The notes: a model not told the origin generated them from the letters alone. A DNA stretch of 64,000 nt from an uncultured Candidatus Saccharibacteria bacterium (GCA_964512925.1 CAZEKH010000004.1:2431-66430); one strand, 5' to 3'; numbered from the stretch's first letter, positions 20,001 through 58,984 are shown. Program-made: numbers and translations.

Positions 20001-20058
20001 TTTATAAAATGCCCAACTATAAGGTTGGCTTTTTATTTTGGAGTGATATAATTCTTAT

Positions 20059-20298: not shown

Positions 20299-20330
20299 AA
20301 TTAAAAAAGCTCCTTACCCCTTTTGTTTTT

Positions 20331-20405: not shown

Positions 20406-20433
20406 CGGCTTCTATCATTAAAAGAAATTTTAT

Positions 20434-20649: not shown

Positions 20650-20784
20650 GTACGGATATTAAAAATGTCAGGGGTATAATTCCCTGACATTTTTGTTAAA
20701 TGAGGCAAAAATATGAGGAGTGTTCCTGTAATTTTTCTCCCTAATATGTTATGATTTTAGTGAAAATACAGTATTCCAATCACT

Positions 20785-23469: not shown

Positions 23470-23561
23470 AAGTACAGAAATATTTAACCTGTGTAAAACT
23501 CATTTTGTGATTTAGGGTATAATGAAAACAGGGCAATAGCCCTGCCTTTCGTTAAAATCCC

Positions 23562-23930: not shown

Positions 23931-24017
23931 TGTTATTTTTGATATATTTTCAATAAAAATTTATAAACGAAAAGCCGCCGAGGTTGTACCCGGCGGCGTT
24001 TTGGTCGTGGCATCCTC

Positions 24018-42883: not shown

Positions 42884-43027
42884 ATTTTTAGAATAACAGA
42901 AAAAGAAATTTTGGGCTAGACAAAAAACTGAATGTGTGCTATAATATAGTAAATATTGGTTAAAAACCTCTATTGAAACCAAAACAAAAAAACAATTAAA
43001 TATTTAAACCCTGAACATTTTGAATGT

Positions 43028-43798
43028 TTGGGCGTTCAAGTTATGGAAGAACGTATGGATATACCAAATCAAAATTCCAAACCCGAACCTTTACACTTCG
43101 GGCATTTTGCGTTGATAGCTATAGCTGTTGTGGGGGTGTTTGGGCTGACTGTGTTTAAAAAAGGAACAGCATTTTTTTATCCAAAATCCGAGATCAAAAA
43201 AAATCTATATACCTATGAACAAGCAACCTTGGACGCGCAAAAAGAGTTGGGAATAAATGTATCTGTAAATCAAATTGCTTCAAGCTCTCAGGATGAAAAA
43301 GAACTGGCGCTTATAGATCCCAATTTTTCTTCGGGCGGGTCTGTGTTAGGCGAGTCTACCGAGGCTGAAGAGGCGATAGCAAATAATGTTTTTGAAATAC
43401 CGGAAGAGATTTTAAATGGTATTCCTATTTTATATACCGCGCCAAACACCAAAGAAGCGGCGCAAAAATATTTCTCGGATTTTAGCGAAGCTGAATATCA
43501 AAACGACTTGCCCGTAGTGCTTGAAGGTTTGAGTTCGGATGATCCGGAAAAGATAGGTCAGGTGCCGGAAAAGATAGACAAGCTGATGAAAGCTTTTTTG
43601 GATTTGGATGTACCGCCGGATTTATATAAATTTCACCGGCTGAAACTTTTATATTATTCAGAGCTCAGGCAGATGGCGATGGCTGTTCTTTCCGCTGAAG
43701 GAGCTCAAACTCCGGAAAGCGTGAGCGAGCAAACCATCTCAGTGGTGCAGGCTTTAAGCGAAGAGCAAAAAAAAATTGACAGCCAATTTGGTTTTTAA
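43028..43798 (+). CDS. hypothetical single-TM membrane protein with an acidic C-terminal domain; first gene of the T4SS-like cluster
   Basis: TM segment FGHFALIAIAVVGVFGLTVF. Co-directional with the downstream cluster and 3 nt from the next ORF. Confidence 0.35.
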   Translation: MGVQVMEERMDIPNQNSKPEPLHFGHFALIAIAVVGVFGLTVFKKGTAFFYPKSEIKKNLYTYEQATLDAQKELGINVSVNQIASSSQDEKELALIDPNFSSGGSVLGESTEAEEAIANNVFEIPEEILNGIPILYTAPNTKEAAQKYFSDFSEAEYQNDLPVVLEGLSSDDPEKIGQVPEKIDKLMKAFLDLDVPPDLYKFHRLKLLYYSELRQMAMAVLSAEGAQTPESVSEQTISVVQALSEEQKKIDSQFGF

Positions 43799-43801
43799 GC
43801 G

Positions 43802-45847
43802 ATGCAAAACAAAACAAAAATCCAATTCAAAAAGATTTTAGCAGGATGTCTTCTGGCATCTATGCTTTTTTCCGCGTATCCAAACAAAACCCAAGCTTTG
43901 ATACCGGTACACGATTTGCCCGGTTATATTTTAGACGGTCTGAAATTTTCAGTGGATTTTTTAAGAAACCTCGCTCTTGGAGCTCCGGGTTCCGGAGCTG
44001 CGACCAGGGCGGCTTTAAAAGGCGCGAAAAAACCTTGTGATGCCGTGAAGACCGCATATCAAGCTTCCCAGGCAGCTGACGTTTTTCCTGGAGCTGAGGT
44101 GTTAGGTGGAAACTCAGTTCAGATCGGAAAACTGACTGCGAAAATCACGGCGTTACAAACCTTAAGAACTTGTTATATCTCAGTTTTGGCTTTGGAAGAG
44201 GCTCCCGGGGCTTTGGCCGGAGTATTGGGCGGTTTGCAAGCTGAAAGCGCAGCGGGTTTTAACGAATTGATTTTGGAAAATGCAATCAATGCTCTGGATC
44301 AGAGGATTGATAAATTGGTGGAACTGCGGAGCAATGCCATCAAAGCAATGTGGAAAGCGGTTGCGGTCAAAGTTTTGATTACTGCGGAAAATAAATTTGT
44401 TACCAATGTAGTTAATGACATTATCCGCAAATACAAAGTTTCCAACTTTTTGGATTACGGCGATGCGTTAACAACTCAAATATACAACATTGAATACGCA
44501 CAGAAAAATTATCCAAATCAGGTTGACCAGGCGATCATTAAATCTGTCTGGCAAAGCGATCCTTTTCAAGGCGAGCTCTCACCGATTTTAAGCGCCCAGG
44601 CTTCCGAGAACCTGGGATTTGACCCTACGCTTATAGATTACAATGATCCGGCATTTTTTGTGAAAATGGCGCAAGCGGGGAGTATGAACAATACGCCTGA
44701 CGGGCTAAATGTTTTGTATAACGACGCGGCAACAGTTGTCAGGGCGCAGGCTAAGGCAAATGCCCAGGCGGAAATTTCCCAAGGCCAGGGAGTGATGGCG
44801 CTGAGGAATTGTAGCGGGATTGCCAGCCAGGAGAGAAGGTTTGATAGCGACTTTAAAGCCAAGCAGGATGATTTGGCTTTAAAACAGGCAGCTTACCAGA
44901 AGCTGTGGGCGGCGCAGATTAGCGATCCTTCTTCTGTTGACCCCCAGGATTTACAAAGGGCGCTGAATAATTTAAACCAGGCCAAAACCGCTTTGGCAGC
45001 ATTGCCAAAAAGAAATAGCGATGTGTTTGTGAAAAGATGCGAAGATATTTCCAATCCGGCTTCAGCCATAAATAATTTTACCAATACATTTTTATCAACC
45101 TCGCTTATCGGTTCCAAATTTAAAGAACCGGAAAACTTGTCTTTTGCTCCTTCTGCGGTAGGGGCTTTCAGTTCTTTGTTTTTAGACAAGCTGATCGGAG
45201 TAACCAAGGGCAGAAGTTTGGGAACCAGGGATTTTGAGGATATGGCGCTTACAACCTCCGGTCAATATGCTTCGGATTTAAGCCTCAACATTTTAAGAAG
45301 CGCGGAAAATTCAACAAAAAATAATTCTCTGTTTTTATCAGTTGCCTCAGCAGGTTCCGCTGGCAGGTTTGTTATTAATTGGGATGCCAGCGCTTTGGAA
45401 GGCGGGAGCCGGATCACGATAACCGGCACGGGGTCAGGGGCTTTGAATTATTCGGCCCAGTCTTTAAAGGGCAGTATAACCATCCAGAGCCAGCAGACGA
45501 GCGGATCTTTTACTTTGAAAGTTTTTGACTCTGCCAATAAAGAACTCGCTTCTGAGGTTGCCAACATCCCAGCGGTGCCAAATTTGACTTTAGGTTCGCC
45601 CCAAAACCCCGATTTGAGCAGTTCCATTTCAAATACAAACACCAGCCTTATAACTTCCGGCTTAATACCCACACCTCCACCATCTTCCGAATATACTTGC
45701 AATGGTCAATATATTAGTTATAATGAATGTTTGTTGCAGCATGAGCCGAATTATTGCGCAGCGATTTGTGGTGGAGTAAATGGCGCAAACATAAAAAGTC
45801 CAGAGTTTTTAAGGGGTAGCCAGGCAGTGAAGATTCGTGGAAATTAA
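43802..45847 (+). CDS. large secreted protein (681 aa) with a signal peptide, coiled-coil regions and a C-terminal Cys-rich module. It may be a pilus or surface component of the T4SS-like cluster.
   Basis: Signal peptide ILAGCLLASMLFSAYPNKTQA. The C-terminus YTCNGQYISYNECLLQHEPNYCAAICGG has 5 Cys. A strong terminator follows directly. Confidence 0.35.
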   Translation: MQNKTKIQFKKILAGCLLASMLFSAYPNKTQALIPVHDLPGYILDGLKFSVDFLRNLALGAPGSGAATRAALKGAKKPCDAVKTAYQASQAADVFPGAEVLGGNSVQIGKLTAKITALQTLRTCYISVLALEEAPGALAGVLGGLQAESAAGFNELILENAINALDQRIDKLVELRSNAIKAMWKAVAVKVLITAENKFVTNVVNDIIRKYKVSNFLDYGDALTTQIYNIEYAQKNYPNQVDQAIIKSVWQSDPFQGELSPILSAQASENLGFDPTLIDYNDPAFFVKMAQAGSMNNTPDGLNVLYNDAATVVRAQAKANAQAEISQGQGVMALRNCSGIASQERRFDSDFKAKQDDLALKQAAYQKLWAAQISDPSSVDPQDLQRALNNLNQAKTALAALPKRNSDVFVKRCEDISNPASAINNFTNTFLSTSLIGSKFKEPENLSFAPSAVGAFSSLFLDKLIGVTKGRSLGTRDFEDMALTTSGQYASDLSLNILRSAENSTKNNSLFLSVASAGSAGRFVINWDASALEGGSRITITGTGSGALNYSAQSLKGSITIQSQQTSGSFTLKVFDSANKELASEVANIPAVPNLTLGSPQNPDLSSSISNTNTSLITSGLIPTPPPSSEYTCNGQYISYNECLLQHEPNYCAAICGGVNGANIKSPEFLRGSQAVKIRGN

Positions 45848-45887
45848 ATCTTATAGTAAATAAATAGGAAAAATCAAGTCTTTTTTA

Positions 45888-45923
45888 CCCCGCCCCGATG
45901 TACATCGGGGCGGGGTTTTGTTA
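45888..45923 (+). terminator. intrinsic terminator
   Basis: CCCCGCCCCGATGtaCATCGGGGCGGGGttttgtt. The CCCCGATGTNCATCGGGG core is shared with repeat family 2. Confidence 0.8.
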
Positions 45924-46012
45924 TCCCCAAAAAATTTTGAGGTTTTGGGTTTTTTGTGGTATAATTTTTAGGTATTTGGATATAAATTTCCTAAATTTTT
46001 ACCCCTTTTTCC

Positions 46013-49000
46013 TTGCAGAAACTAAAAATAAAATTTAAAAGGTTTTTTGCAAATAAAACATTCCTTTTTCCCATACTTGTGGGTATTTTTGTGTTAGGTA
46101 TAATTTTTTTCCAAGGAATACTAACAGCAAAAGCTCAGTTAACAGCAAAGAAAGTAGACCCTGGGAGCATTCAGTTTAAAATGGATACTGAAATAAATGG
46201 AAAGAATGATAATCTGGTTAAAGTTGTAAAGGGTAACCCTATCAAAATTAAGGCAATTGTTACTGTCACCGCAGCTTCTGAATCCGGGACCATTGGAGGA
46301 CCGATACAAGATATAAATTATGGTGTTGATGTTTTGGATTTTAATACAACTATTGATAGAAATAGAATTTTGAAAGAGATCGGTGTTGGTATAGAGCCAG
46401 CCCAAGCCGACAAGACATCTTGCGATCAAAAAATAGTTTCAAATTTTATTGTTTGGAAAGATAATACCACTTATATCGCGTGTAATTTTTTTGCAGGATC
46501 AGGAGTTTTGGGCGCAAACGGCCTTAAAATCGGACAATCATATCCTGTTGAAATTTCGTTTGTAATAAATGACACAACAATAAACGGTATGGGGTTAGAC
46601 AAACCCTGTCCCAGAAATTCAAGCAAGACACCTTGTTTAACTGTTTATCCATATGTTTTTATGGATAAAATTGGAATTGATAGAAAAATCGCAGTATCAA
46701 CAGGCGGGAAGGATGTTTATGTGCAGTATTATAATTCGCAAACAGAAATGGATGCGGATACATCCAGGCCGACCGATATACCGGCATATGGTTCCGTGCA
46801 AGGTAATCTTGGCGTTGGCGCAACCGGAAGTGGTTTAGTAGGGTTCATTAACCAAATCATTGGCATTATTGTTGGGGCTTTTAATGAGCTGATTTATTTG
46901 ATTTTCTATTTGGTGGTAGCTCCTCTGCTTCAGGCAATGCTTTCCATCTCAACTTACAAAGATACTTTTGTGGCGGTTATTTACCCGGGCTGGGAGATTA
47001 TCCGCAACATTTGCAACATCATTTTTATCGTGGCGATGATAGCTATCGGACTTGGCACCATCTTGCGCGTAGATTCGTACAACTACAAACATTTGCTGGT
47101 GAATTTGATTCTTGCAGCATTACTCATTAACTTTAGTTTAGTTATTGGACAGATTATACTGGGCATAGCAGACACAGTGCAAAACCAATTTTTGCCCAAC
47201 AATCAGGAAGTCATCCGCGCTTTGGCAAAAGACTTGATGCTGGCATACCGAAGCGAAACTTGGAATTTAAATTACGCGCAAAATGGTTTTTGGGGCAACA
47301 CCTTCAAGCCTTTGTTTTTCCTGGCTATGGCTACGGGCAGTTTTATGATTTTTGTTGCTATAGCCGCGTTTTTGTTTATACGAATTGTGATGCTCTGGAT
47401 ACTTCTTATGGTTTCGCCCATAGCGTATGCCGCCGGGGTTTTGCCTTCTACGGCTAGTTTCAGGCAGACCTGGTGGTCAAACTTCATTAAGTACGCGTTC
47501 TTCACGCCGGTGATGGCTTTCTTCTTAAACCTGACTGCTGTCATTTCCGCAGCTTACAAAAACACTTCCATTCTTCAAACTGTAACATCTGCGGACTTGC
47601 AGAATTCGGATTTAGCAGCTTTTGTCTTTAGACTGGCTAGTAATGTCATCCTGCTGGTGTTTTTGATGGTCGCTATCCAAGCTGCTGACAAGTTCGGCAT
47701 CTATGGCGCTTCCGAGCTCGGCAAAATGGCCAAAGGCGGCCTTATGGCTCCGTTTGCCGGAGCCGGGTGGCTGGGGAAGACAGGATATAAAAATTTCCAG
47801 TTGTGGAAATGGAATGCTACCAAGGCATGGTCGCAGGAAACCGAACCTGGGAAGTCAAAAGTTATTGGTGGGCTTAAAAGGATAGCATTTACCGCAGTGA
47901 ATCCTGAAGCTGTAAAAAAAGCCTTTGAAAAAGATTTTGAAAAGAAATATCACAGGGCAGAGCATGCTGTTGAAGCTGCCGGTTTGGATGTAAAACGACA
48001 AACTCCAGGGTTTAAAGAAGTTGGTATGCCAAGTGAGTTGGCTGAGGTTGAATTACATGCTTTGGATGAAATAAGTAAAGAACGACCTTACTCTGGTAAT
48101 GAGGAGTTAGAGGTGGACTTGGCATTAAACTTATTTAAGCTGGCTAAAACTTCAGAAAAATACCGTCCGGTGGCGGCAGCTAAATTTTTGCAATTAATTG
48201 AGGAAAAAGGTGGTAATGCGTTACTTGCAAAAAGCACTGATGATGAAGGTAAACCCTTTGAATGGACACGCGAGTCTATGAACGCTTATCTAAATAAAAT
48301 GGTAAAAGATGGTGTGTTTTCGAAACAAATGGCCGGTGAATTAAATAACCGTATTAGCAAAATTGCCTATGAAACTAAACAGCGAGCTATGTATGAGGGT
48401 GTATATAGACATGGTGTTCATCCTGGAGTGTTTGAAACTGAAAAAGTAGATTGGGGTGATGAAAAAGGTAAGGTTTGGCGCATAGCCGGACAAAATGATT
48501 ACGAAGCTTTACGCAATTTTTCATATAGCAAGCTTGATTCTGCCATTGTTGAAGACAAGGAAGTGGCGGCACAATTTTTAGAAACCACAAAAGGTTTGGA
48601 TGGCTTGGCTAAAGAGGAAGCGGAAAAAACATTTAAAGCCAGCCTTTTGAAGCAAATGATGAAAGATATATCTGGTCACAGTGGCAAATGGGGTTCAAAA
48701 TACGGCCATGATTTTGAAGAAGCCTTTCAAAAGGATAAAAAATATAATCCTGATGGCAAAGCTAGTTTTAATCATGATCGGTATCATAATTTTGAGGCTT
48801 GGAAAGGAACTATGGATCAAAGAGATTCAAACCTGACCAAAAGAAAAGGACCTAACGATGCTCTTTCCGATGTTCACTGGAATAGCGTTACCGAAACAAT
48901 TAATGGGGCAACCAGGCTTCAGAGCTCTGCGTTGGTGGATTTTTATGATATAAAAGAGGGTGAAAAGTTTCAGGCTGGAAGAGGTTTGCAGCCTAAAGTA

Positions 49001-49252
49001 CTTGCCGGTCTTGAAAGGGCTATCGTTACCTACAAAGATTTGGCAATCAAGGATTTTGAAAATGAAATAAGGCGAAGGACCATTGAAGCTGGCGAAAAGA
49101 TGCCTTCTGATGCTGAAATTACCGAAATGGCAAAGAAAAAGGTTGCTGACTTGCAAACTGTGATTGACAGGTCAAAATATGGAGCGACCACACCCCCAGT
49201 AGTTAAACCCAAAATTGATATGGGTAAGTTAGAAGAAACTGGTATTTCATAA
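46013..49252 (+). CDS. VirB6/TrbL-like polytopic membrane protein (1079 aa) with an N-terminal extracytoplasmic beta-rich domain and a ~500-aa C-terminal hydrophilic domain
   Basis: N-terminal TM or signal segment, then at least 6 strongly hydrophobic helices between aa ~270 and ~560 (for example FFLAMATGSFMIFVAIAAFLFIRIVMLWILLMVSPIAYAAGVLP). The topology and size resemble Gram-positive VirB6 analogues such as TcpH or PrgH. It sits upstream of the VirB3/VirB4-like genes. Confidence 0.5.
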   Translation: MQKLKIKFKRFFANKTFLFPILVGIFVLGIIFFQGILTAKAQLTAKKVDPGSIQFKMDTEINGKNDNLVKVVKGNPIKIKAIVTVTAASESGTIGGPIQDINYGVDVLDFNTTIDRNRILKEIGVGIEPAQADKTSCDQKIVSNFIVWKDNTTYIACNFFAGSGVLGANGLKIGQSYPVEISFVINDTTINGMGLDKPCPRNSSKTPCLTVYPYVFMDKIGIDRKIAVSTGGKDVYVQYYNSQTEMDADTSRPTDIPAYGSVQGNLGVGATGSGLVGFINQIIGIIVGAFNELIYLIFYLVVAPLLQAMLSISTYKDTFVAVIYPGWEIIRNICNIIFIVAMIAIGLGTILRVDSYNYKHLLVNLILAALLINFSLVIGQIILGIADTVQNQFLPNNQEVIRALAKDLMLAYRSETWNLNYAQNGFWGNTFKPLFFLAMATGSFMIFVAIAAFLFIRIVMLWILLMVSPIAYAAGVLPSTASFRQTWWSNFIKYAFFTPVMAFFLNLTAVISAAYKNTSILQTVTSADLQNSDLAAFVFRLASNVILLVFLMVAIQAADKFGIYGASELGKMAKGGLMAPFAGAGWLGKTGYKNFQLWKWNATKAWSQETEPGKSKVIGGLKRIAFTAVNPEAVKKAFEKDFEKKYHRAEHAVEAAGLDVKRQTPGFKEVGMPSELAEVELHALDEISKERPYSGNEELEVDLALNLFKLAKTSEKYRPVAAAKFLQLIEEKGGNALLAKSTDDEGKPFEWTRESMNAYLNKMVKDGVFSKQMAGELNNRISKIAYETKQRAMYEGVYRHGVHPGVFETEKVDWGDEKGKVWRIAGQNDYEALRNFSYSKLDSAIVEDKEVAAQFLETTKGLDGLAKEEAEKTFKASLLKQMMKDISGHSGKWGSKYGHDFEEAFQKDKKYNPDGKASFNHDRYHNFEAWKGTMDQRDSNLTKRKGPNDALSDVHWNSVTETINGATRLQSSALVDFYDIKEGEKFQAGRGLQPKVLAGLERAIVTYKDLAIKDFENEIRRRTIEAGEKMPSDAEITEMAKKKVADLQTVIDRSKYGATTPPVVKPKIDMGKLEETGIS

Positions 49253-49260
49253 TTTTTTGC

Positions 49261-50286
49261 TTGACTTATCTTATGTCTCAACTAGATAATAATTTGATTG
49301 AAAAAATAAATAAAGCTAAATGGCCTGAAAATCAAAAAAAACTCCTGTTAGAGCTTTTGCCGAATTTTGGTTTGAATTTTCAAAACTTTGTCTTGATTGA
49401 AGCCGGCAAACTGGGTTTTGAATATTTGTCAGAAGTTTTGCCTAAATTAATGCAACAACTTTTAGATATTGGTGTGAGTAAGTTAAAAGATTCTGATGGG
49501 TTTTTGTCCTTATTGGCTTCTGCCCCAGATGATCCAGAAAAGGATTGTGGGCAAATGGTTTTACCTTGGGTTATGGATTTTTATTCTGAAAATAAGGAAA
49601 ACTTTTCAACTTCCGATGAAGTATATGGGGCTTTAGCGTATTTTTTTTCTAAAATGTTTAATTTTTTACCAGAAAAATTCTGCGCTAATTTTTTTGAACA
49701 TTATACATTTTTTTCTTTGATACGCGGTATTGATCTGTTATTTTTGAGTAAAAAGTATATTTATAAAAAAAGATGGGTGGGTGATAGTAATAAAACAAAA
49801 TTTTTTTTAGATGCTTTATTTAAAAATCAGGAGATAATCACAAGTTCCCCAATTACATATTTAGGTTCGAAGGTAAATGGTAATGTATCGGAGATTATAT
49901 CAAAATTTGCAACTTCTAATAACAATTTTAGAAAAATTAGTAGTTTAGAAGTTACTAAATTCGTGTCTGATATTAGGGGCGTGCAAGAAAACGAAAGAAA
50001 GGCTATATTAAAGCTTTTGATTTTGTATTTATGGCTTCTAAGTCCAAATGTGACTGAGTCAGAAATTTATGATGAAGATTATTCAGAGATTTTAACAGAA
50101 ATTGACCCAGGTAAATTTTTTAGAAAGGAAATATTAATTGGTTTTTTTTCACCTGATATTCCCTCCTCAACACAAAATAGTAATTTAGTTATGAAAACCA
50201 GCGATTTTTCAAACGTCGGTTATGTAAACATTGACCAAAAACTGCAGGAGCTTAGGAGGAGGGCGGAGAAGGATGGGAAAGGGTAA
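49261..50286 (+). CDS. hypothetical cytoplasmic protein within the T4SS-like cluster
   Basis: 341-aa ORF starting 9 nt after the VirB6-like gene. No motif recognised. Confidence 0.35.
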   Translation: MTYLMSQLDNNLIEKINKAKWPENQKKLLLELLPNFGLNFQNFVLIEAGKLGFEYLSEVLPKLMQQLLDIGVSKLKDSDGFLSLLASAPDDPEKDCGQMVLPWVMDFYSENKENFSTSDEVYGALAYFFSKMFNFLPEKFCANFFEHYTFFSLIRGIDLLFLSKKYIYKKRWVGDSNKTKFFLDALFKNQEIITSSPITYLGSKVNGNVSEIISKFATSNNNFRKISSLEVTKFVSDIRGVQENERKAILKLLILYLWLLSPNVTESEIYDEDYSEILTEIDPGKFFRKEILIGFFSPDIPSSTQNSNLVMKTSDFSNVGYVNIDQKLQELRRRAEKDGKG

Positions 50287-50527
50287 GTGCAAGCTAGTTA
50301 GAGTGTTAGGGAGATAGAGTTAAGAATAAAGAAATTTTGGATAATATTATATATTTTTAAATGTTTAAAGGTTTTATTTTTAAGAATTTATTAAAACAAA
50401 AACCCAAAGCCTTGTTGCCTTGAGTTAGGATTTATACCTCTGCCTTTTCAGGCAGAGTCGGGCCGAAGCCATTTGTAAAATTAGTATATAATATATATAA
50501 GATACTGTCAAGAGCAATTTAAAGTTT

Positions 50528-52081
50528 ATGCAACAAGACCAGGTAGAACAAATTAAAAAGCTTGTCAGATCAACAGAGCTTTTAAAAGAAGAAGAAAGGG
50601 CTGAATGGCTTTCGCTTTTTGGCGTGATGAATGACAAACAGCTTTTAGAGCTTAGAAAAATATTAGAAGGGGTGGAAAAAAAGGTTGAAACCCAGTCCGT
50701 GGGACTCGGATATTTGCCAAAAATAGAAGAGAATCCAGTAGCTCAGATGGCTATCAAGCCGAAATTCTCCGAAGAGCCTAAGTCTTTATCTGAAACGGTT
50801 CAAAAAAAGCCGGAGCCTGCGCCTGTGGCTTTGCCAAAACCGACAGTTTTGCCGCCTTTGGAAGCAAAATTACCCGAACTTTTGAAAAAATCCGCGGAAG
50901 ATATAAAAAAGCCGGTAATTTCTCCTAAAAGCCCAAACCTTTCGCATATTTTAAACATCCCTGCTAAAGATCCGGGTGTAAAAAAGCTGATTGCCAACAA
51001 CTTGGGACAAAAATCCAATTTAGAAATCAAAAGCGCACCTAAGATTGCATCAAAAGTATTGAGTGATGAGAGTTTTAAAGGCAGGCAAAATGGATTTTTT
51101 ACTTCTTTAAAATCCTTGCTTGGAAAAAAAGAACTCAAAGCTGGACATCCTGAAGCTGTGCAAGAAAAAGAGCTGCCTGCGCCTCATACCGCTTTAGAAA
51201 AAATGCCGCAAAATTTGCCTGCCCCGCTTGTGTCCAAAGCTCTGGCGCCGGCTGTTTTGCCGAAAACTGAAACACAGAAAACCGGAGATAAAACCGCTGA
51301 AGCAAAACCTTTACCGCCAACTGTGCCTAAACCCCCGGTAAAGTTGCCAGAAAAAAAACCGGAAGCAAAAGTTCCGGACAAGCCCGCGGTCAAATCTGTG
51401 GAATTGCCAAAAATTCAACCCATTGCGTCTACTTTTGGTAAGGGATTGACTTATAATCCAGCTGTCAAAAAAACTGGAGGTTTGGAGGATCAAAAAATCC
51501 TTCAAAAAGTTCCGCTTGCTTCGCCGCAGCCACAGCCGCCAGTAAAGAAAACCATCAGGCCAGATGCTGGAAAAATTTTTGCCGCCGGAGTGCAACTACC
51601 CAATATGCCTGAAGGTTTAAATTTGTCAGATTTTGTAAGAAAACAGGCTCAGTTTTCTGAAAAAAAGCCGGAAAATATTGCTACAGCCCCGGAACAGATG
51701 AAGCGCGCAAATATGCCGGCAGATGTTCAAAGCCTGGAAAGCAAAACCGCTCCCATAATGATGGTTTTAAAATACCCTGATTTTAAACCTCCGGCAATCA
51801 ATGTAGCTTCAGACTTATTATCTTTAAAACTTAAAGATTTTCCGGAAAATCATCCTGCTTTTTCCAACCAGATCAAGGCTTTGGTGAAAAATATCGGTAT
51901 TCATGAAGTTATGGCGCAGTTGGAGCAGAGCCCTCTTTATAAAGCCTATCTAAAAACCGGCACGGATGCGCTTAGTCAAAAGTATAATTTTTCCGAAAAT
52001 TCCGAATCTGAAACGGATTATATGAATTTGGATCAGTTTGAAGGTTTTGCGGATCTGTTGATGCAGGTACAGGCTGAATAA
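50528..52081 (+). CDS. Pro/Lys/Ala-rich low-complexity protein (517 aa)
   Basis: Repeats of the type PKPPVKLPEKKPEAKVPDKPAVK and LPAPLVSKALAPAVLPK. The N- and C-termini are non-repetitive. No TM segment. Confidence 0.35.
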   Translation: MQQDQVEQIKKLVRSTELLKEEERAEWLSLFGVMNDKQLLELRKILEGVEKKVETQSVGLGYLPKIEENPVAQMAIKPKFSEEPKSLSETVQKKPEPAPVALPKPTVLPPLEAKLPELLKKSAEDIKKPVISPKSPNLSHILNIPAKDPGVKKLIANNLGQKSNLEIKSAPKIASKVLSDESFKGRQNGFFTSLKSLLGKKELKAGHPEAVQEKELPAPHTALEKMPQNLPAPLVSKALAPAVLPKTETQKTGDKTAEAKPLPPTVPKPPVKLPEKKPEAKVPDKPAVKSVELPKIQPIASTFGKGLTYNPAVKKTGGLEDQKILQKVPLASPQPQPPVKKTIRPDAGKIFAAGVQLPNMPEGLNLSDFVRKQAQFSEKKPENIATAPEQMKRANMPADVQSLESKTAPIMMVLKYPDFKPPAINVASDLLSLKLKDFPENHPAFSNQIKALVKNIGIHEVMAQLEQSPLYKAYLKTGTDALSQKYNFSENSESETDYMNLDQFEGFADLLMQVQAE

Positions 52082-52167
52082 CGTAGTTTTTAGGCCTATG
52101 TTTTTACTGTTTTTTAATCCTGAACTAGTTAAAAAATAGAAATAAACTAAAAAAACTAGTATAATTA

Positions 52168-52617
52168 TTGTACGAAGTAACAATGCAATTTCCAGTACCA
52201 CAATTTACCGAAGTTGAGGATAAAATTTTTGGTCCCTTGACCCTAAAGCAGTTTGGTATTGTTTTTGGAGCCGGGGTGGTGATATTTTTGGGTTACAGCG
52301 CGACCAAAAGCCTGGCGGTTTTAGTAGTTTTGTTTTTATTGTTTGGACTTCCGGCATTGGGAATAGCCTTTGCTAAGCCAAACGGCAGGCCGCTATACAA
52401 TTCTTTCGGATTTATGTTTAGATTTTATACCAGTCCCAAAGAGTTGATATTCCACCGCGAAGCTCGGTCTGCGGGCGCGATGCCAAAAAATCAAAATCCA
52501 GATCAGGCACCTGCTTCAGTTGACGCGAACCTCGGCACCACTCAGGACAGGCTAAGGGAAGTTAACCAGCTGCTGCAAAAAAATGCACAGGAAGAAAAAG
52601 ATATTTTGAAGATGTAG
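52168..52617 (+). CDS. small two-TM membrane protein, VirB3/PrgI-like by position and topology
   Basis: Helices FGIVFGAGVVIFLGY and LAVLVVLFLLFGLPALGIAFA. Immediately upstream of the VirB4 N-domain ORF. Confidence 0.4.
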   Translation: MYEVTMQFPVPQFTEVEDKIFGPLTLKQFGIVFGAGVVIFLGYSATKSLAVLVVLFLLFGLPALGIAFAKPNGRPLYNSFGFMFRFYTSPKELIFHREARSAGAMPKNQNPDQAPASVDANLGTTQDRLREVNQLLQKNAQEEKDILKM

Positions 52618-52687
52618 AAGCCCAAATTTTAAATTAAAAATGTATTTAAGTAATTCAATTTAAAAATATTCGCTGTGTAGGGCACAG

Positions 52688-52790
52688 TCGTTCGACCTCT
52701 CCCGCTCCGATGTCCATCGGGGCACCCTCCCCACCCGCCTGCAGCGATATGTGCAGCATTTCGGGCAGGAGCCTGGGGAGGGAAAAACTG
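52688..52790. repeat. hairpin repeat family 2 copy
   Basis: GTTCGACCTCTCCCGCTCCGATGTCCATCGGGGCACCCTCCCCACCCGCC...GCCTGGGGAGGG. It overlaps the annotated N-terminal extension of the next ORF. Confidence 0.7.
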
Positions 52791-52807
52791 TATTAAGTTT
52801 TTATCCT

Positions 52808-53494
52808 ATGAAGTTTGATATGCAAAATAAAAACAAATCAACCGGCAAAACAACCCAAAGCTTTTTACGCATCGCTGAGATCAAATCCGATACCGCAGTG
52901 ATGGATGACGGGACTTTGAGGGCAATTTTGTCTGTCTCGTCCACCAATTTTGATTTAAAAAGCCAAGACGAGCAAAATGGGATAATATTTAACTTCCAAA
53001 GGTTTTTAAATTCTTTGGATTTTCCCGTTCAAATTTTGATGCAAAGCCGAAAGATGGATGTCGGGGCTTACTTGGAAAAGCTCAAGCGGATTTCGGAAAA
53101 GCAGACTAACGAACTTTTGCGAGTGCAGACCCAGGAATATGTGGAGTTTATCGCCAGGCTGGTGGAAAATGCCAGCATTATGAACAAAAATTTTTATGTT
53201 GTTGTGCCTTTGGGCGAAAGCGTCAATCCGAATGCAGCAGGTTTTTTCAGTAAAATATTTGGAAACGGCAAAGCCAAAGAAGCCAAAGAACGGATTGAGA
53301 ATTTTGAAAAAGCTTCGGAAAAATTGAATTTGCGTGTCAGCGCGGTTTTGTCCAACCTATCCAGCGTGGGGGTAAGATCAGCCAGGCTGAAAACCGAAGA
53401 GATCATCCAACTTTACTACAACTCTTATAATTTTGATGCCGCTCCAAACATAGACGCCACTAAAATCCCGGAAATGGATATTGTTAATACTTAA
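52808..53494 (+). CDS. VirB4/TrbE/CagE-family N-terminal domain, separate ORF. The start is taken at MKFDMQ because the ORF-track extension reads through a repeat.
   Basis: RAILSVSSTNFDLKSQDEQNGIIFNFQRFLNSLDFPVQILMQSRK resembles the VirB4 N-domain. It ends with TAA in the same frame as the ATPase ORF, which restarts 27 nt downstream. Confidence 0.5.
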   Translation: MKFDMQNKNKSTGKTTQSFLRIAEIKSDTAVMDDGTLRAILSVSSTNFDLKSQDEQNGIIFNFQRFLNSLDFPVQILMQSRKMDVGAYLEKLKRISEKQTNELLRVQTQEYVEFIARLVENASIMNKNFYVVVPLGESVNPNAAGFFSKIFGNGKAKEAKERIENFEKASEKLNLRVSAVLSNLSSVGVRSARLKTEEIIQLYYNSYNFDAAPNIDATKIPEMDIVNT

Positions 53495-53521
53495 ATAAAA
53501 ATATAAAACTACTTCATCACA

Positions 53522-55369
53522 ATGAGTTTATTTGGAAAACACAACCAGGCGGAGATTGACGAAAAAAAAGAAAAGATAAAAGAGCTGGAGTCTGAACGCA
53601 GCGCGTCAAAAAAATTGGACGATGTGGAAAAAACCTACCGCGAGGGACTTACCACTTTGCGGGATTTGATCGCGCCCGCGGCTTTAAAGTTTTCCGGATC
53701 GTATTTTGAACTGAATGGCAAATTCGGCAGAAGTTTTTTTGTGCTGGCTTACCCGAGATTTTTATCCACTAACTGGCTGTCTTTTGTCATTAACGCGGAA
53801 GGGGCTTTGGATGTTTCAATGTTTATTTACCCCATTGATTCGGCAACGATTTTAAAAAAGCTTAAATCCAAAGTCGGGGAAATAGGTTCTCAGATGTCTA
53901 TGAATCAGGAAAAGGGTTCGGTCCGCGACCCAATGCTGGAGACTGCGTACAAAGATGTGGAAGGGCTTCGCGACCAGCTGATGCAGGGAACGGAAAAATA
54001 TTTCCGTTTTGCCTTATATTTTACGATTTATGCGGACGATCTAAAAGAGCTGGATAAAAATTCCGCCACTTTAGAGAGCTCTTTAGGCGCCAAGTTGGTG
54101 GTAACAAAGCGCGCGGTTCTGCAGACTCAGGACGGTCTGAACTCCACTTTGCCTCTGGGTATGGATCTTTTGGATGTTGGAAACAATATGAATACCAGCC
54201 CGCTCTCTACCTGTTTTCCTTTTGTTTCTTCCGATCTGACGACTAATGACGGGATTTTATACGGTATCAACCGGCACAATAACAGTCTGATTTTGTTTGA
54301 CCGTTTTGCAATGGAAAATGCCAATAGCGTGATTTTCGCCAAATCAGGCGCAGGAAAATCCTACGCTGTAAAGCTGGAAGTTTTGCGTTCTCTGATGATG
54401 GGCACTGAAGTTATCATCATAGATCCTGAAAACGAATATAAGCATTTAGCCGAGGCCGTGGGCGGGACTTACTTAAATGTCTCTTTAAACAGCGAATCGC
54501 GGATTAACCCTTTTGATTTGCCAGTGGCTATAGAAGGAGAGCAAAATAGCGAAGTTTTGAGAAGCGCGGTGGTAAATCTTTTAGGTATGTTCAATCTGAT
54601 GCTGGGCAAGTTAAATCCCACTGAAGAAGCGATAATGGACAAGGCGATTTGGCAAACATATGCGAAAAAAGACATTACTCCGGATTTGGCGGACTTTAGA
54701 GGCGCGGAAATGCCGACAATGAACGATCTGGTAGAAATTTTGTCCGGCACTGTGGGAGCGGAAAGTTTGGTTCAGCGCTTAGGCAAATATACGGAAGGGA
54801 CTTTTGCCGGACTGTTTAACCAGCCGACCAATGTGGTTTTAAACAACCAGCTCGTGGTTTTTTCCATTCGCGACCTGGAAGAGGAGCTAAGGCCCATAGC
54901 GATGTATATTGTGCTGAATTATATTTGGAATGTTGTCAGAAGCGAACTCAAGCGTAGGATATTGGCAGTGGACGAAGCCTGGATTTTGATGCAGCACGAA
55001 GACAGCGCCAGGTTTTTATTTGGCATAGCAAAAAGAGGCCGTAAATATTATCTGGGACTTTCAACCATCACTCAGGATGTGGTGGATTTTATGTCCAGCC
55101 CTTACGGCAAGCCGATCGTTACCAATTCTTCCATCCAGCTTTTGCTCAAACAGTCGCCGGCGGCTATCAATGTCATAGCAGAAACTTTTTATCTGACAGA
55201 GGGTGAAAAATATCTGCTTTTAGAAAGCGAAGTCGGGGAAGGCATATTTTTTGCCGGCCTTAAACACGCGGCTATCAAAATTTATGCCTCCTATGTGGAA
55301 GATCAAATCATTACTACTGACCCGAAACAGCTTTTAGAAATTCAGGAAAGCCAGGATAAGCTGAACTAA
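53522..55369 (+). CDS. virB4: VirB4-family conjugation/secretion ATPase, ATPase domain
   Basis: Walker A AKSGAGKSYAV, Walker B RILAVDEAWILM (DEAW is the VirB4 hallmark), GLSTITQDV. Length and motif spacing match the VirB4 C-terminal domain. Confidence 0.8.
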   Translation: MSLFGKHNQAEIDEKKEKIKELESERSASKKLDDVEKTYREGLTTLRDLIAPAALKFSGSYFELNGKFGRSFFVLAYPRFLSTNWLSFVINAEGALDVSMFIYPIDSATILKKLKSKVGEIGSQMSMNQEKGSVRDPMLETAYKDVEGLRDQLMQGTEKYFRFALYFTIYADDLKELDKNSATLESSLGAKLVVTKRAVLQTQDGLNSTLPLGMDLLDVGNNMNTSPLSTCFPFVSSDLTTNDGILYGINRHNNSLILFDRFAMENANSVIFAKSGAGKSYAVKLEVLRSLMMGTEVIIIDPENEYKHLAEAVGGTYLNVSLNSESRINPFDLPVAIEGEQNSEVLRSAVVNLLGMFNLMLGKLNPTEEAIMDKAIWQTYAKKDITPDLADFRGAEMPTMNDLVEILSGTVGAESLVQRLGKYTEGTFAGLFNQPTNVVLNNQLVVFSIRDLEEELRPIAMYIVLNYIWNVVRSELKRRILAVDEAWILMQHEDSARFLFGIAKRGRKYYLGLSTITQDVVDFMSSPYGKPIVTNSSIQLLLKQSPAAINVIAETFYLTEGEKYLLLESEVGEGIFFAGLKHAAIKIYASYVEDQIITTDPKQLLEIQESQDKLN

Positions 55370-55390
55370 TTTTTAAAATTATTAGATTAC

Positions 55391-55472
55391 ACCCGCATCC
55401 TTTCCCCCTCTCCCGTTAGACGGGGGAGCCTGCCCGACTTGGTCATTCAGGCGGGGGTAGGGGTGGGGGTGA
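55391..55472. repeat. composite hairpin repeat related to family 1
   Basis: CCCCCTCTCCCGttagaCGGGGGAGcctgcccgacttggtcattcaggcGGGGGTAGGGGTGGGGGTG. Confidence 0.6.
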
Positions 55473-55555
55473 ATTTTTTTAAAATTCAGTGAAAATTGTC
55501 CCGATGTCAATCGGGATCCCGCTTCGCGGGAAAAATTGGTAATTGAAATTTTTTT

Positions 55556-58426
55556 ATGGCAGACCCAGTTTTAAGCGACGAATCCGTTGATGCGGAAATA
55601 GATGAGGCGCAAAAAGATAACCCCAAAAAGCCTTCACCTCCTGAAGAGCTTTTCGGGTTGGCTAAACAAAAAGCTGTAAAAAATTCTCCAATATTGGCTG
55701 ACGGACAATCCGTGACTTTTTTTAGCTGGCCAGATGTGGCCAGGGCAAAATCAAAAGTTGTAATTTCAGGACAAAATTTAAATCGATATAACGCGCTAAG
55801 GGTTTGGGCAAAAGGCAAGCCTTACAATCCGGTTAGTCTTCATCGGGCGGTTTCTGACAGTGAGAGTATAGGTTTTTTAATGCCGGATTTCAACGATTTT
55901 TTAGATGAAGGCGCTGAAATAATTTTAGAACTTTTAAGCTCCACATTTCCCGGGCTTAACAGACAGTTGTCGCCAAGGGTTTTTTACAGCTTGAAATCAG
56001 AAGATTCTTCTGAAGAAGAAAAAAGTAAAGAAGAAAAAATTGCTAAAAATGAAAAAAATGATGACGGTTCTTCTAATAAATCAACGCAGTATTCTGGCAT
56101 TTCTCCTGTTCAGGCAACCGAGGAGTTGTTGGAAGGCGTCAGGCAATCTTTACTGTCTTCCAAAGATGCTCAAAATCAATTTGCTCCAAAAAGCGCTCTA
56201 GAGCCAGACTTTCCAAAAAAACAGGAAAATTTGAGTGAGGATTTGAATTCTGACGATGAAAATCCGGCTGTAGAGGGTATTTCTCAAACAACAGAAACTG
56301 GTGGAGGTGAAAATTCAGGGACAGAGGCGGTTTTAGATGCCTTAAATGTCAATCCTGGATTGATTGAAAATACGGAAATTCGGGAAAAAATTATCAGCGC
56401 CTTGCAAGCCGGCGAAGTTCAAAATCTGGATGAAGAAAGTGCAGAAGTTTTAAGCCGGATTATTAACTCTACCCAGGTTTCAAGTGGAATAACCGAGCAG
56501 TCAGATGATGTTTCGATAAAAACTGAATCCGAGGTTGGTGGAGCGTCAACTCTTCAAGGGACAGAGATTTCTGCCCGAACTCAAACAACTCAAACTGCAA
56601 ATGCCGGCGGGTCGGTTTCTTCTAAGGTTGCTTCAGAGAACATTTCCGTACAAGAGCCGAGGTTGGAGGCTAATTTAAAATCCACTCAAACGGAAGCTTC
56701 AGGCAGTATTACTGCCGAAGTAAAAACTGGCCAAGAACAAAGTTTGAGTCAAAATCAAGAGACTAAAGCCGATATAAGCGCCGAAGCTTCTTTAGATATC
56801 GGCGCTAACAATGTTTCTGAAACTAACAAGTCCAAGCCTGACTTAAATGAAAATGCCGATGTAAAAATAAATCAGAACTTACAAAATGAGACTGCAGCGG
56901 ATTTACCTAAAGATTTAACGGGTCAAGAAAAGAAACAAGATCAGCCGAAACAAGCGCAAGTAAAAAAACCATCGGGCGATTTAAAAGAACCGAAAGGCGA
57001 TTTTAAGGAAGCAAAACCGCAAAAACCGTCTGAAAAAAAAGCCAGCGAAGTTCAGGAGGATGTAAAACCGCAGGTTCCGGAAGAATATAAAAAAATGCTG
57101 GGAAGCCTTGATGGGAAAACTCCGTTGGGAGCGCTGCCGGCAAGGGAAGAAAAAAAATCCGAAAGTATAAAAGGAAAAAGCTCTGAAAAAAAACAAGAGA
57201 GAAAAAAAGGTCAGAATTCCGGCGCTCCTTTGGGCTTGGTACCGAAAGATTTTTCCAAAGCTGAAGCTGCCGCTAAAGAAAAATCTTTAAGCTCCGGTTT
57301 GCCTTCAGGGTTTAAAACTCCGCCTCAAAATGTGGAAGGTTTGAAAAATGTTGGAAAAGATACAGAAACTTCCCCTCAGGGTGATGAAAACAAACAGCCG
57401 TCTTTGGCTGAAAATATGCCGGAAAAATCCGAACAGGCAGGCCAGCCCGGACCAGAGAATGTAAACGAGAGGGAAAAAGATGCAGAAGATGCAGATGAAA
57501 ATTTAGAAACAGAAGAACCTGATACGCCGCTACCGCTTCAGCAGGTAGAAAATAAGAAAAAACAGGAAAAGAAAAAAAGTTTGGAATCAGCCGAAGCGGA
57601 TAAAGCTTTTGGCGTAGCGGCCTCCGCAGCCTGGCGACAGATTGCTTTGGTTTGGCTTCCTGGTATGTTTTTTGGGTCAATGCCGACCATTGTCGGCCCG
57701 ATATTTGTTTTGGTTATGGGGGCGCTCGCTGGGGATGTTTATTGGTGGTTTTTGCATTCGCGCAATTCCGACAGGTGGCCGCTTAAAACCTGGCAGAAAG
57801 GCCTGACTGTGGGAATCAATTTATTGTTGGCGGTTTTTGTGGTCGGTATTTTGTTGTTTTTTGTTACAACTTTGAAATATCTATGTTCAGATTCAAAAGG
57901 TTTAGGAGCTCTATATTTGGCAGGCTACCAAGATGTCTGTAAAGGAATAGACCAGGTTACAGGAACCAGCTTTTTAGACTTTCAAAAAAATCCTTACGCA
58001 GGAACAACGGATGGCGGGGTAACATCTTCCGGAATATGCCAGCCGGTTTCGTTCGGTGTCGCATCCGTGCAAAATTTGCAAAACAGTTGTTTTGGTTCCA
58101 ATGCAGCCAAAGCCTCTTCCATAGCCAAGCTGGAAAGCGGGGGTCAAGCAACCAATGAAAGTAAGAGCGACATATGCAAGGACGGTAAAGCGTTTTCGAT
58201 CGGGCTTTTTCAGATAAACTTGACAGTTCATAAAATAAACAGCTTAAACTGCCCCGCGGCTTTTGCGGGCAGGGACTTTGCCTGCACTGTGGTAAATGGG
58301 CAGCTATATAGTCAATGCGTACAAGCGGCAAAAGACGCACAGATCAATATTCAAAAAGCCTGCGAGATTTCCCAAAACGGCCAGAATTGGGGAGCCTGGA
58401 GCACAAATAGGGTATGCAAGTATTGA
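55556..58426 (+). CDS. VirB1-like lytic transglycosylase domain protein (956 aa): ~700-aa acidic/Lys-rich disordered N-terminal region, two TM helices, and a C-terminal Cys-rich GH23/SLT-like domain
   Basis: C-terminal KLESGGQATNE...GLFQINL matches the catalytic Glu-Ser and GLMQ motifs of SLT/GH23. TM segments are IALVWLPGMFFGSMPTIVGPIFVLVMGALAG and LTVGINLLLAVFVVGILLFFV. The N-terminal 700 aa are rich in E/K/S/Q. Confidence 0.5.
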   Translation: MADPVLSDESVDAEIDEAQKDNPKKPSPPEELFGLAKQKAVKNSPILADGQSVTFFSWPDVARAKSKVVISGQNLNRYNALRVWAKGKPYNPVSLHRAVSDSESIGFLMPDFNDFLDEGAEIILELLSSTFPGLNRQLSPRVFYSLKSEDSSEEEKSKEEKIAKNEKNDDGSSNKSTQYSGISPVQATEELLEGVRQSLLSSKDAQNQFAPKSALEPDFPKKQENLSEDLNSDDENPAVEGISQTTETGGGENSGTEAVLDALNVNPGLIENTEIREKIISALQAGEVQNLDEESAEVLSRIINSTQVSSGITEQSDDVSIKTESEVGGASTLQGTEISARTQTTQTANAGGSVSSKVASENISVQEPRLEANLKSTQTEASGSITAEVKTGQEQSLSQNQETKADISAEASLDIGANNVSETNKSKPDLNENADVKINQNLQNETAADLPKDLTGQEKKQDQPKQAQVKKPSGDLKEPKGDFKEAKPQKPSEKKASEVQEDVKPQVPEEYKKMLGSLDGKTPLGALPAREEKKSESIKGKSSEKKQERKKGQNSGAPLGLVPKDFSKAEAAAKEKSLSSGLPSGFKTPPQNVEGLKNVGKDTETSPQGDENKQPSLAENMPEKSEQAGQPGPENVNEREKDAEDADENLETEEPDTPLPLQQVENKKKQEKKKSLESAEADKAFGVAASAAWRQIALVWLPGMFFGSMPTIVGPIFVLVMGALAGDVYWWFLHSRNSDRWPLKTWQKGLTVGINLLLAVFVVGILLFFVTTLKYLCSDSKGLGALYLAGYQDVCKGIDQVTGTSFLDFQKNPYAGTTDGGVTSSGICQPVSFGVASVQNLQNSCFGSNAAKASSIAKLESGGQATNESKSDICKDGKAFSIGLFQINLTVHKINSLNCPAAFAGRDFACTVVNGQLYSQCVQAAKDAQINIQKACEISQNGQNWGAWSTNRVCKY

Positions 58427-58457
58427 AAATTATAAATTATTATTTTTTATTAATTAC

Positions 58458-58517
58458 GATCGTTTGACCCCTCCCGCCCCGATGTCCATCGGGGCACGCT
58501 CCCCAAGCCTGGGGAGG
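58458..58517. repeat. hairpin repeat family 2 copy
   Basis: GTTTGACCCCTCCCGCCCCGATGTCCATCGGGGCACGCTCCCCAAGCCTGGGGAGG. Confidence 0.75.
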
Positions 58518-58522
58518 AAAAA

Positions 58523-58984
58523 ATGAAATCTATGGAAAATTCTAAATTTTACAAAATATTGCTGGGACTCGGAATACTTATTTTGATTTTAGTCAGCGTG
58601 TATTTTGCATTGCCCGGTCCTGACCAAAAAAGCTCGTTGAATGGGAAGATAAATATTCCTGCGCAAAACGGACAAATCCAAACCAATGATTTTCATAAAA
58701 CTCAGGTGGAGCAAGTGGCTGAAACTTCGGTTTTAGCCAGAACTGCCGGGTTTGAAATTGTGAATTACGCGGTTGATAATTCTTTTACTATAACGCTTTC
58801 TCAAAAGCCGTTGGACAAGTCTCGCGATGAGGCTGAGCAAAAACTTTTGCAGATTTTAGGCGTTATCCCGACTGAGGCTTGTAAATTGAAAGTTGCCGTC
58901 TTTGTCCCTTTTTCCGTGGATGAGAAAGCTGCTGGTATAGACTATGGCCTAAGCTTTTGTCCAAAAGGCCTGCCGATTGATTAA
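58523..58984 (+). CDS. hypothetical single-TM or secreted protein (153 aa)
   Basis: TM segment ILLGLGILILILVSVYFALP. No motif. Confidence 0.3.
   Translation: MKSMENSKFYKILLGLGILILILVSVYFALPGPDQKSSLNGKINIPAQNGQIQTNDFHKTQVEQVAETSVLARTAGFEIVNYAVDNSFTITLSQKPLDKSRDEAEQKLLQILGVIPTEACKLKVAVFVPFSVDEKAAGIDYGLSFCPKGLPID

Follow-up and report, generated by a model that had tools for sequence, protein, structure and literature searches.

An intact chromosomal gene cluster, probably a Patescibacteria type IV secretion system of the Doudnabacteria form, with an extended VirB6

In this study, we analysed a gene cluster related to type IV secretion systems (T4SSs) at positions 43028-58984 of a 64,000-nucleotide stretch of DNA (GCA_964512925.1, CAZEKH010000004.1:2431-66430; the whole stretch is hereafter called the window). 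An earlier interpretation made from the DNA alone, referred to below as the sequence-only reading, had described a T4SS-like cluster here, and each open reading frame (ORF) was confirmed: the cluster comprises eleven ORFs, all on the + strand, with the coordinates and sizes that had first been listed. The G+C content of the cluster, 0.36-0.44, is the value of the surrounding window. The features of the cluster and its downstream neighbours are listed below, with the evidence for each in brackets.

43028..43798, + strand: membrane protein of 256 amino acids (aa) (ORF; one transmembrane (TM) helix at aa 24-42)
43802..45847, + strand: secreted protein of 681 aa (AlphaFold2 (AF2) model, homologue family)
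45887..45916, + strand: terminator-like hairpin (13-bp stem with 10 GC pairs, T run)
46013..49252, + strand: extended VirB6/TrbL-like protein of 1079 aa (homologues match PF04610; AF2 model and Foldseek)
49261..50286, + strand: soluble accessory protein of 341 aa (alignment, family hidden Markov model (HMM))
50528..52081, + strand: soluble Pro/Lys-rich accessory protein of 517 aa (alignment, family HMM)
52168..52617, + strand: PrgI/VirB3-like two-TM protein (PF12666)
52751..53494, + strand: TrsD-like protein, the VirB4 N-terminal domain as a gene of its own (NF041427, NF045975)
53522..55369, + strand: VirB4 ATPase of the monoderm CD1110/MPF_FATA type (NF045971, PF19044)
55556..58426, + strand: predicted membrane-anchored lytic transglycosylase of 956 aa, VirB1-like role (PF18896)
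58523..58984, + strand: single-TM membrane protein of 153 aa (ORF, TM prediction, conserved Cys pair)
59154..60305, + strand: membrane-anchored PD40 beta-propeller protein of 383 aa (PF07676)
60480..61814, + strand: radA, context gene (Pfam)
62479-63963, - strand: recG, context gene (Pfam)

The relationship to T4SSs is supported by profile or fold evidence for each of PrgI, TrsD, VirB4, VirB6 and the transglycosylase, and searches with Pfam and NCBIfam profiles, together with a fold match, upheld the proposed VirB3, VirB6 and VirB1 assignments. The ORF at 52168-52617, described before as a VirB3-like two-TM protein, encodes PrgI, the monoderm counterpart of VirB3 (PF12666, E=1.5e-12), with predicted TM helices at aa 24-42 and aa 49-67. 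The proposal of a VirB4 split into an N-domain gene and an ATPase gene was borne out by matches to three NCBIfam models. TrsD (52751-53494) matched NF041427 (E=2.8e-6) and positions 85-233 of the 894 positions of NF045975 (E=3e-10), and VirB4 (53522-55369) matched positions 278-893 of this same full-length VirB4 model. VirB4 also exceeded the cutoff of the CD1110 VirB4 equivalog NF045971 (364.5 bits, cutoff 325) and matched PF19044. The two ATPase motifs that had been noted were both located in VirB4 and are intact, with Walker A (AKSGAGKS) at aa 273-280 (54338-54361) and Walker B (DEAW) at aa 484-487 (54971-54982). Because TrsD and VirB4 are separate ORFs in nearly all related loci that reach far enough upstream (TrsD identity 33-76%), the split VirB4 is the TrsD-VirB4 pair and not a frameshift. 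The relatives align only from residue 20 of TrsD and residue 6 of PrgI, and the real start sites are therefore probably at internal Met codons, at about 52808 and about 52183, respectively.

The 1079-aa protein, taken previously for a giant VirB6/TrbL-like protein, is accepted here as an extended VirB6 on the basis of its homologues and of a structural model. The TrbL/VirB6 family PF04610 was matched individually by 33 of 43 aligned homologues, with a best E-value of 1.9e-9. The AF2 model (predicted local distance difference test score, pLDDT, 79.7) consists of a leader or first TM helix (aa 18-32), a beta-sandwich ectodomain (aa 50-265; nt 46148-46822), long hydrophobic helices forming a bundle assigned to the membrane (aa 274-560; nt 46823-47707) and a confident, Cys-free helical C-terminal domain of roughly 480 aa (aa 620-1058; nt 47810-49249). 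A Foldseek search of the model against the PDB indicated resemblance to R388 TrwI/VirB6 (7o3v, 8rt9; probability 0.99-1.0, target TM-score 0.45-0.47). The family alignment gave nothing significant against PDB sequence profiles, and no relative of the helical C-terminal domain was detected by PDB profile search or Foldseek. We infer that this domain is cytoplasmic, because it lacks Cys and is preceded by a Lys-rich stretch, and that the Cys-containing beta-sandwich is outside. VirB6 orthologues in the related Doudnabacteria loci are 1050-1430 aa long, whereas those of the other examined classes in the candidate phyla radiation (CPR) are about 660-740 aa, compared with about 1080 aa in the window. 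Extended VirB6 proteins are an already recognised category (PMC12857230). As in the Rickettsiales paralogues and F-type TraG (PMC12857230), a polytopic helical core is combined with large hydrophilic domains; the additions in the window are an N-terminal beta-sandwich and the helical C-terminal domain, and the likeness is architectural.

The 956-aa protein carries an SLT_3 domain (PF18896; 31.7 bits, cutoff 27) at aa 848-950, and this domain contains the motifs E860-S861, with the presumed catalytic Glu, and G883-L-F-Q886. From its sequence, the protein is predicted to be an SLT lytic transglycosylase with a VirB1-like role, in line with the SLT/GH23 transglycosylase that had been placed at the C-terminus. 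Among 25 positional orthologues, SLT or SLT_3 was detected in 12 and the ES...GLxQ signature was retained in 15. The N-terminal region of about 685-690 aa (55556-57607) is of low complexity, free of Cys and has a net charge of about -37. It had been described as a 700-aa acidic disordered region; the net charge is indeed negative, but the region is of mixed charge, with an acidic middle third and a K/E-rich last third (aa 450-700) that is nearly neutral. About three hydrophobic helices (57608-57880), the last two joined by an Arg/Lys-rich loop, lie between this region and the Cys-rich SLT domain (57881-58423). The topology is probably N-in and C-out and the disordered part cytoplasmic, because all 10 Cys of the protein lie outside the low-complexity part. 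Both the length and the sequence of this part differ widely among relatives.

VirB4 has thousands of homologues, and the named ones at 82-88% identity belong to Candidatus Doudnabacteria or Patescibacteria. These homologues place the organism itself in the Patescibacteria (CPR), near Candidatus Doudnabacteria (class ABY1), in line with the earlier mention of ultra-small episymbiotic bacteria. A scan of species-representative genomes yielded 67 related loci (individual loci are numbered L below). In about 35 Doudnabacteria loci the same gene order is kept: 681-like, VirB6, 341-like, 517-like, PrgI, TrsD, VirB4, transglycosylase, small single-TM protein, PD40 protein, radA and recG. Among these loci, the 681-like protein is sometimes absent or replaced, the protein in the 341 position is 340-520 aa long, and the protein in the transglycosylase position is large, with C-terminal TM helices and, in most cases, an SLT domain. 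The housekeeping flanks reported before (uvrD, radA and recG) were all found with Pfam. Upstream, Pfam identified ileS, recO, the genes of a DUF11 surface protein and of a LysM-CHAP hydrolase, uvrD, ksgA and a DUF192 gene; on the downstream side, the membrane-anchored PD40 protein is followed by radA, a small transglutaminase-like ORF and recG. The context of uvrD-ksgA upstream and radA-recG downstream is shared by the approximately 35 related genomes. Since the same order occurs in the same housekeeping context across these genomes, the locus is, as judged by synteny, chromosomal and vertically inherited rather than an integrative and conjugative element (ICE). The core of VirB6, PrgI, TrsD and VirB4, often with ksgA upstream, was also found in Paceibacteria, Portnoybacteria, Berkelbacteria and others.

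These features agree closely with a system described between 2023 and 2025. Wang et al. (2023) reported that a T4SS cluster is essential for Southlakia to grow as an epibiont, that it is most like Gram-positive conjugative systems, that it lacks a coupling protein and relaxase and that, given these absences, protein export is a possible role (PMC10633639). In a survey of 3,035 Patescibacteria genomes, Quinonero-Coronel et al. (2025) found that most VirB4s form one clade nested in MPF_FATA, that TrsD, PrgI, VirB6 and VirB2-like pilins are widespread, that relaxases are rare and homologues of the type IV coupling protein (T4CP) lie elsewhere in the genome, and that ksgA is a common neighbour, with comF, recG and radA included in class ABY1 loci; import of DNA or other macromolecules was proposed (PMC12102498). 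The cluster in the window corresponds nearly point for point to these published systems (PMC12102498; Southlakia epibionticum SEML1_0006-0019, PMC10633639): its VirB4 is likewise of the monoderm type with TrsD as a separate protein, genes for PrgI/VirB3, VirB6 and a cell-wall hydrolase lie next to virB4, no relaxase or coupling protein is nearby, and the cluster is chromosomal, near ksgA, with the radA/recG link of ABY1. It differs in having no VirB2-like pilin array in or beside it, in the approximately 690 low-complexity residues of its transglycosylase, in the 517-aa and 681-aa families, which are here specific to Doudnabacteria, and in a VirB8-like slot filled by the 153-aa family. The 'unusual architecture' of the sequence-only reading is thus real in its features, but these are the norm for the phylum or lineage and have largely been published (PMC12102498, PMC10633639, PMC12857230). 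New for this lineage are the VirB6 domain map, the transglycosylase layout and the 681-aa helical/FN3 protein.

Similarity extends to the Gram-positive conjugative T4SSs of the MPF_FATA type (pCF10 Prg/Pcf, pIP501 Tra, pGO1 Trs and CTn2 CD1110), with which the cluster shares a VirB4 above the CD1110 cutoff, PrgI, TrsD, a VirB6-like protein, a VirB1-like hydrolase and the lack of an outer-membrane core. Unlike these systems, it has no T4CP, relaxase, oriT or PrgB-type adhesin, is chromosomal and vertical, and has a much larger VirB6. Taken together, it is highly probable that the cluster is a chromosomal, vertically inherited Patescibacteria T4SS, derived from MPF_FATA, in the form found in Doudnabacteria (class ABY1).

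Upstream of virB6, the genes of the 256-aa and 681-aa proteins form a two-gene unit. A promoter-like site (42917-42945) precedes the first gene, whose product has no Cys in addition to its single TM helix (aa 24-42). The hairpin at 45887-45916, which is the terminator proposed earlier after the 681-aa gene and has its T run behind the stem, closes the unit and is followed by a promoter-like site at 45937-45965; the unit thus stands apart from the virB6 operon. In L025, an orthologue of the 256-aa protein is encoded immediately upstream of a 681-like gene, whereas neither L034 nor L038 has the pair. The public annotation of the gene at 43802-45847 (P0241, 661 aa) begins 20 codons later, inside the signal peptide, and homologues favour the longer, 681-aa reading. 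Small PaaX_M/Cas2-like proteins, which are possible regulators, recur at 861-1349 (- strand) of the window and in relatives (L041:67-627, L001:1256-1933, L036:351-908), and in several relatives such a protein is encoded immediately upstream of virB6.

In the AF2 model of the 681-aa protein (pLDDT 76.8), a signal peptide is followed by very long helices at aa 39-507, an FN3-like sandwich at aa 511-589 and a Cys-rich tail. An exhaustive HMMER search gave a family of 192 cluster representatives, whose alignment matched nothing significantly among PDB sequence profiles. With Foldseek, FN3 domains alone were matched, and VirB5, TrwJ and TraC were not among the matches. The mature N-terminus, LIPVHD, resembles the N-terminal motif of VirB5: A-Q-x-[PV]-V-x-D(P) occurs directly after the leader in many members of the family, and the same motif is conserved in nine annotated VirB5 proteins collected from plasmids. 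In its loose form, the motif was counted in 17/62 members of the 681 family, 8/9 VirB5 references and 6/234 other signal-peptide-like ORFs, with a mean of 2.3 for shuffles of the 681 family. Weak matches to Pfam DUF4141 were given by 2/64 family members, and likewise to NCBIfam TrbJ by 2/64. DUF4141 we take to be the CTnDOT TraI family; TraI was related to VirB5 by Guglielmini et al. When the 681 family was compared with the nine annotated VirB5 proteins by hhalign, the leader and motif alone were aligned (29-40 columns, probability 10-65%). The family resembles the VirB5/TrbJ tip proteins (R388 TrwJ, Agrobacterium VirB5) in that its members are helical, are secreted and have their genes immediately upstream of virB6, as well as in its post-leader motif, but the 681-aa protein is three times longer and has an FN3 domain and a Cys-rich tail. 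We do not call it VirB5, given the restricted hhalign alignment and the Foldseek result; the VirB5-like reading is a lead rather than a finding, and the protein is a candidate surface or tip protein.

None of the 256-, 681-, 341-, 517- and 153-aa proteins matched a Pfam or NCBIfam model. The 341-aa protein has no TM helix and its position right after virB6 is conserved; its family HMM detected 31 loci, two of which (L050 and L059) are distant CPR loci. The 517-aa protein, also without a TM helix, has a conserved N-terminal motif (aa 16-46) and a C-terminal domain (aa 466-511), and its family was found in 35 loci, all in Doudnabacteria. Neither family alignment had a PDB relative in the profile search. 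The 153-aa protein consists of one TM helix and a small ectodomain with the conserved Cys pair. The slot after the transglycosylase is occupied by the 153-aa family in the window and some relatives and by a 185-aa single-TM family in others, so that the two alternate among Doudnabacteria. The 185-aa family, not present in the window, gave weak Pfam signals for VirB8 (E=0.024), NTF2_YvbJ and TcpC; its members in this slot are as follows.

L006:14995-15561: 185-aa family member
L009:14910-15455: 185-aa family member
L012:14966-15520: 185-aa family member
L015:15149-15697: 185-aa family member
L041:13807-14388: 185-aa family member

The two families could be aligned over the TM helix and linker only (probability 81.6%) and otherwise look unrelated, and no protein of the window matched VirB8 in Pfam or NCBIfam. 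The PD40 protein lies between the cluster and radA in all Doudnabacteria loci; it is a conserved neighbour whose membership of the T4SS is uncertain. In two relatives, a gene for a membrane-anchored DsbA-like thioredoxin lies inside the cluster (L025:14034-14810, L034:14587-15402), in keeping with the Cys-rich ectodomains that the T4SS proteins carry.

Several variations were seen in relatives. The VirB4 ORF of one (L036:8510-11836) encodes 1108 aa with an N-terminal extension of about 490 aa, and that of another (L060:10001-11849) is split over two adjacent ORFs. In related Doudnabacteria, small genes interrupt the T4SS operon at the junction of the 517-like gene with PrgI or at that of TrsD with VirB4 (L002:7866-8234, L009:7881-8252, L001:9578-9988, L002:8819-9199, L026:8760-9044 and others). 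These encode 23S-rRNA-IVS four-helix-bundle (PF05635), PDDEXK_3 and GIY-YIG-like proteins, none of which is found in the window. Near the cluster in the window, 5-8 kb upstream, lie the genes of the DUF11 repeat surface protein (35197-37008) and the LysM-CHAP peptidoglycan hydrolase (37675-38751, - strand).

The window provides 43 kb upstream and 5 kb downstream of the cluster, and was scanned with Pfam for relaxase, VirD4 and VirB11. None of the three was detected among the window ORFs of at least 400 aa and most of the shorter ones. The earlier statement that they are missing within 15 kb therefore stands for the ORFs scanned, but on the downstream side only 5 kb is visible. No VirB7-, VirB9- or VirB10-like protein was found among the cluster proteins with Pfam and NCBIfam. 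The only mobile-element genes in the window are those of a serine recombinase and a split rolling-circle Rep, about 27 kb upstream in a separate low-G+C island (13372-24000, G+C 0.34-0.36) beside the transfer-messenger RNA (tmRNA) gene, which contains the following features.

13698-15305, - strand: serine recombinase (overlaps the tmRNA 3' end)
16087-16461 and 15660-16106, - strand: rolling-circle Rep (REP_ORF2-G2P/RepSA-like), two ORFs (Pfam)
20785-23469: 894-aa protein with an HSDR_N domain

The island probably represents a mobile element that has integrated and partly decayed; an att duplication was looked for at the tmRNA island and none was found. Inside it, an Rfam LOOT RNA match was detected at 17631-17744 (63.1 bits, gathering score 46.4), and a 24-nt sequence just after this match repeats at 20376-20399. 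In an intergenic array at 19623-20006, a unit of 120-130 nt occurs in about three imperfect copies, among them a pair of 111 nt with 97% identity.

These observations bear on whether the cluster is an ordinary ICE, with its relaxase and VirD4 just beyond the window. The short downstream view and the presence of a serine recombinase and a rolling-circle Rep elsewhere in the window would be compatible with such an element; however, the housekeeping genes that flank the locus are the same in about 35 genomes, its G+C is not deviant, the recombinase/Rep island, of low G+C and with a split Rep, lies next to the tmRNA gene at a distance of 27 kb, and relaxases are rare in the phylum. The ICE reading was rejected on synteny and composition and is very improbable, and the conserved chromosomal synteny likewise supports the earlier view that this is not a self-transmissible conjugative element. 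Decay of a conjugation system to a remnant without present function could account for the lack of canonical VirD4, VirB11, relaxase, pilin and clear VirB8 and for the long low-complexity regions, but it is hardly reconcilable with eleven intact ORFs, a VirB4 that is 82-88% identical across species with its Walker motifs kept, a gene order conserved in a reduced genome and the essentiality of the homologous system in Southlakia. We regard this explanation, too, as most unlikely. Several results nevertheless weigh against a Patescibacteria T4SS of the Doudnabacteria form. No VirB2-like two-TM pilin was found among the ORFs of at least 70 aa that were read (15-31 kb), and the cluster has neither a VirB2-like pilin nor a clear VirB8, though both have been reported for other Patescibacteria. 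The intergenic gaps of the cluster are at most 242 bp and no VirB2-like pilin gene fits in the cluster; small ORFs in the operons of relatives were considered as pilins and rejected, as they are the IVS four-helix-bundle, PDDEXK_3 and GIY-YIG genes. Moreover, the 1079-aa protein alone had no Pfam match at E<=1, and the Foldseek E-values to TrwI were weak (0.03-0.07) despite the probability of 0.99.

If the cluster is such a T4SS, its job is most likely to move macromolecules across the site where a host cell is contacted, as epibiotic life requires. As for the cargo in this lineage, we lean slightly towards nucleic-acid import rather than protein export, because the radA/recG neighbourhood is conserved. 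T4SS-based import has precedents in ComB and Ced. Like Helicobacter ComB and archaeal Ced, the cluster has a VirB4-family ATPase, no relaxase, no coupling protein and a possible role in import, whereas ComB includes homologues of VirB2 and VirB7-10 and belongs to a diderm envelope, and in comparison with Ced the VirB4 lies far below the cutoff of the CedB model NF041017 (43.8 bits, cutoff 700) and no CedA-like proteins were identified. The DNA-uptake role offered by the sequence-only reading is a hypothesis that has also appeared in print. It is possible, though tentative, that a VirB6/VirB4 translocon draws in host or environmental DNA, or other nucleic acids, and delivers them to RadA, RecG and RecO next door for recombination or nucleotide salvage. 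The lack of a relaxase or coupling protein in the scanned ORFs, radA and recG directly downstream in all Doudnabacteria loci, recO and uvrD upstream, and the published linkage of comF, recG and radA in ABY1 together with the import hypothesis (PMC12102498) agree with this proposal. The CedB score argues against it, as does the absence of the radA/recG linkage in other CPR classes with the same core; the neighbours are housekeeping genes, and their linkage may be historical, a mere conserved gene order. In Southlakia, loss of comEC is without effect on viability although the T4SS is essential (PMC12857230), which weakens nucleotide acquisition by the ComEC route as the essential role and concerns this route only. 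Alternatively, the system could export proteins (effectors or toxins), like effector systems without a T4CP, or form a host-directed adhesive or penetrating surface structure whose tip or adhesin would be the 681-aa protein. This proposal, about which we are equally reserved, gains from the opinion of Wang et al. (PMC10633639), from the several secreted, Cys-rich or Ig/FN3-like ectodomains in the cluster and from the enrichment of the VirB5-like N-terminal motif in the 681 family (17/62 against 6/234 other signal-peptide ORFs). However, neither effector candidates nor secretion signals were found, the cluster has no pilin genes, and VirB5 homology is unsupported beyond about 35 residues (hhalign probability 10-65%; no TrwJ or TraC in Foldseek). 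In a more speculative combination of both ideas, which we consider improbable, a pilin-less T4SS with a fast-evolving, 681-aa VirB5-like tip on an oversized VirB6 would be a host-piercing stalk through which nucleic acids are imported to the co-located RadA and RecG. If true, a VirB5-type component would be present in a monoderm-derived system and coupled to DNA import.

By analogy with solved T4SSs, among them the R388 system with its VirB5/VirB6 stalk and VirB3/VirB4 architecture (PMC9259494), and with the genetics of Southlakia, a working scheme can be suggested for the Patescibacteria T4SS of the window. VirB4, with its N-domain supplied by the separate TrsD subunit, would be docked on the membrane through PrgI/VirB3 and would energise a channel or stalk base made of the extended VirB6, while the membrane-anchored SLT transglycosylase would locally open the peptidoglycan. 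The host-facing part may be formed by the 681-aa helical/FN3 protein, the beta-sandwich ectodomain of VirB6 and the single-TM proteins. The distribution of Cys across the cluster proteins is consistent with the topology proposed.

A large part of bacterial diversity belongs to the Patescibacteria, whose members live attached to other microbes, and their T4SS is the only one known to be essential for its own bearer. The window adds nothing categorically new to this picture; it offers a clean, intact example from Doudnabacteria. The domain maps of VirB6 and the transglycosylase, the lineage-specific accessory proteins and the candidate VirB5-like surface protein may guide structural and genetic work once the lineage is cultivated.

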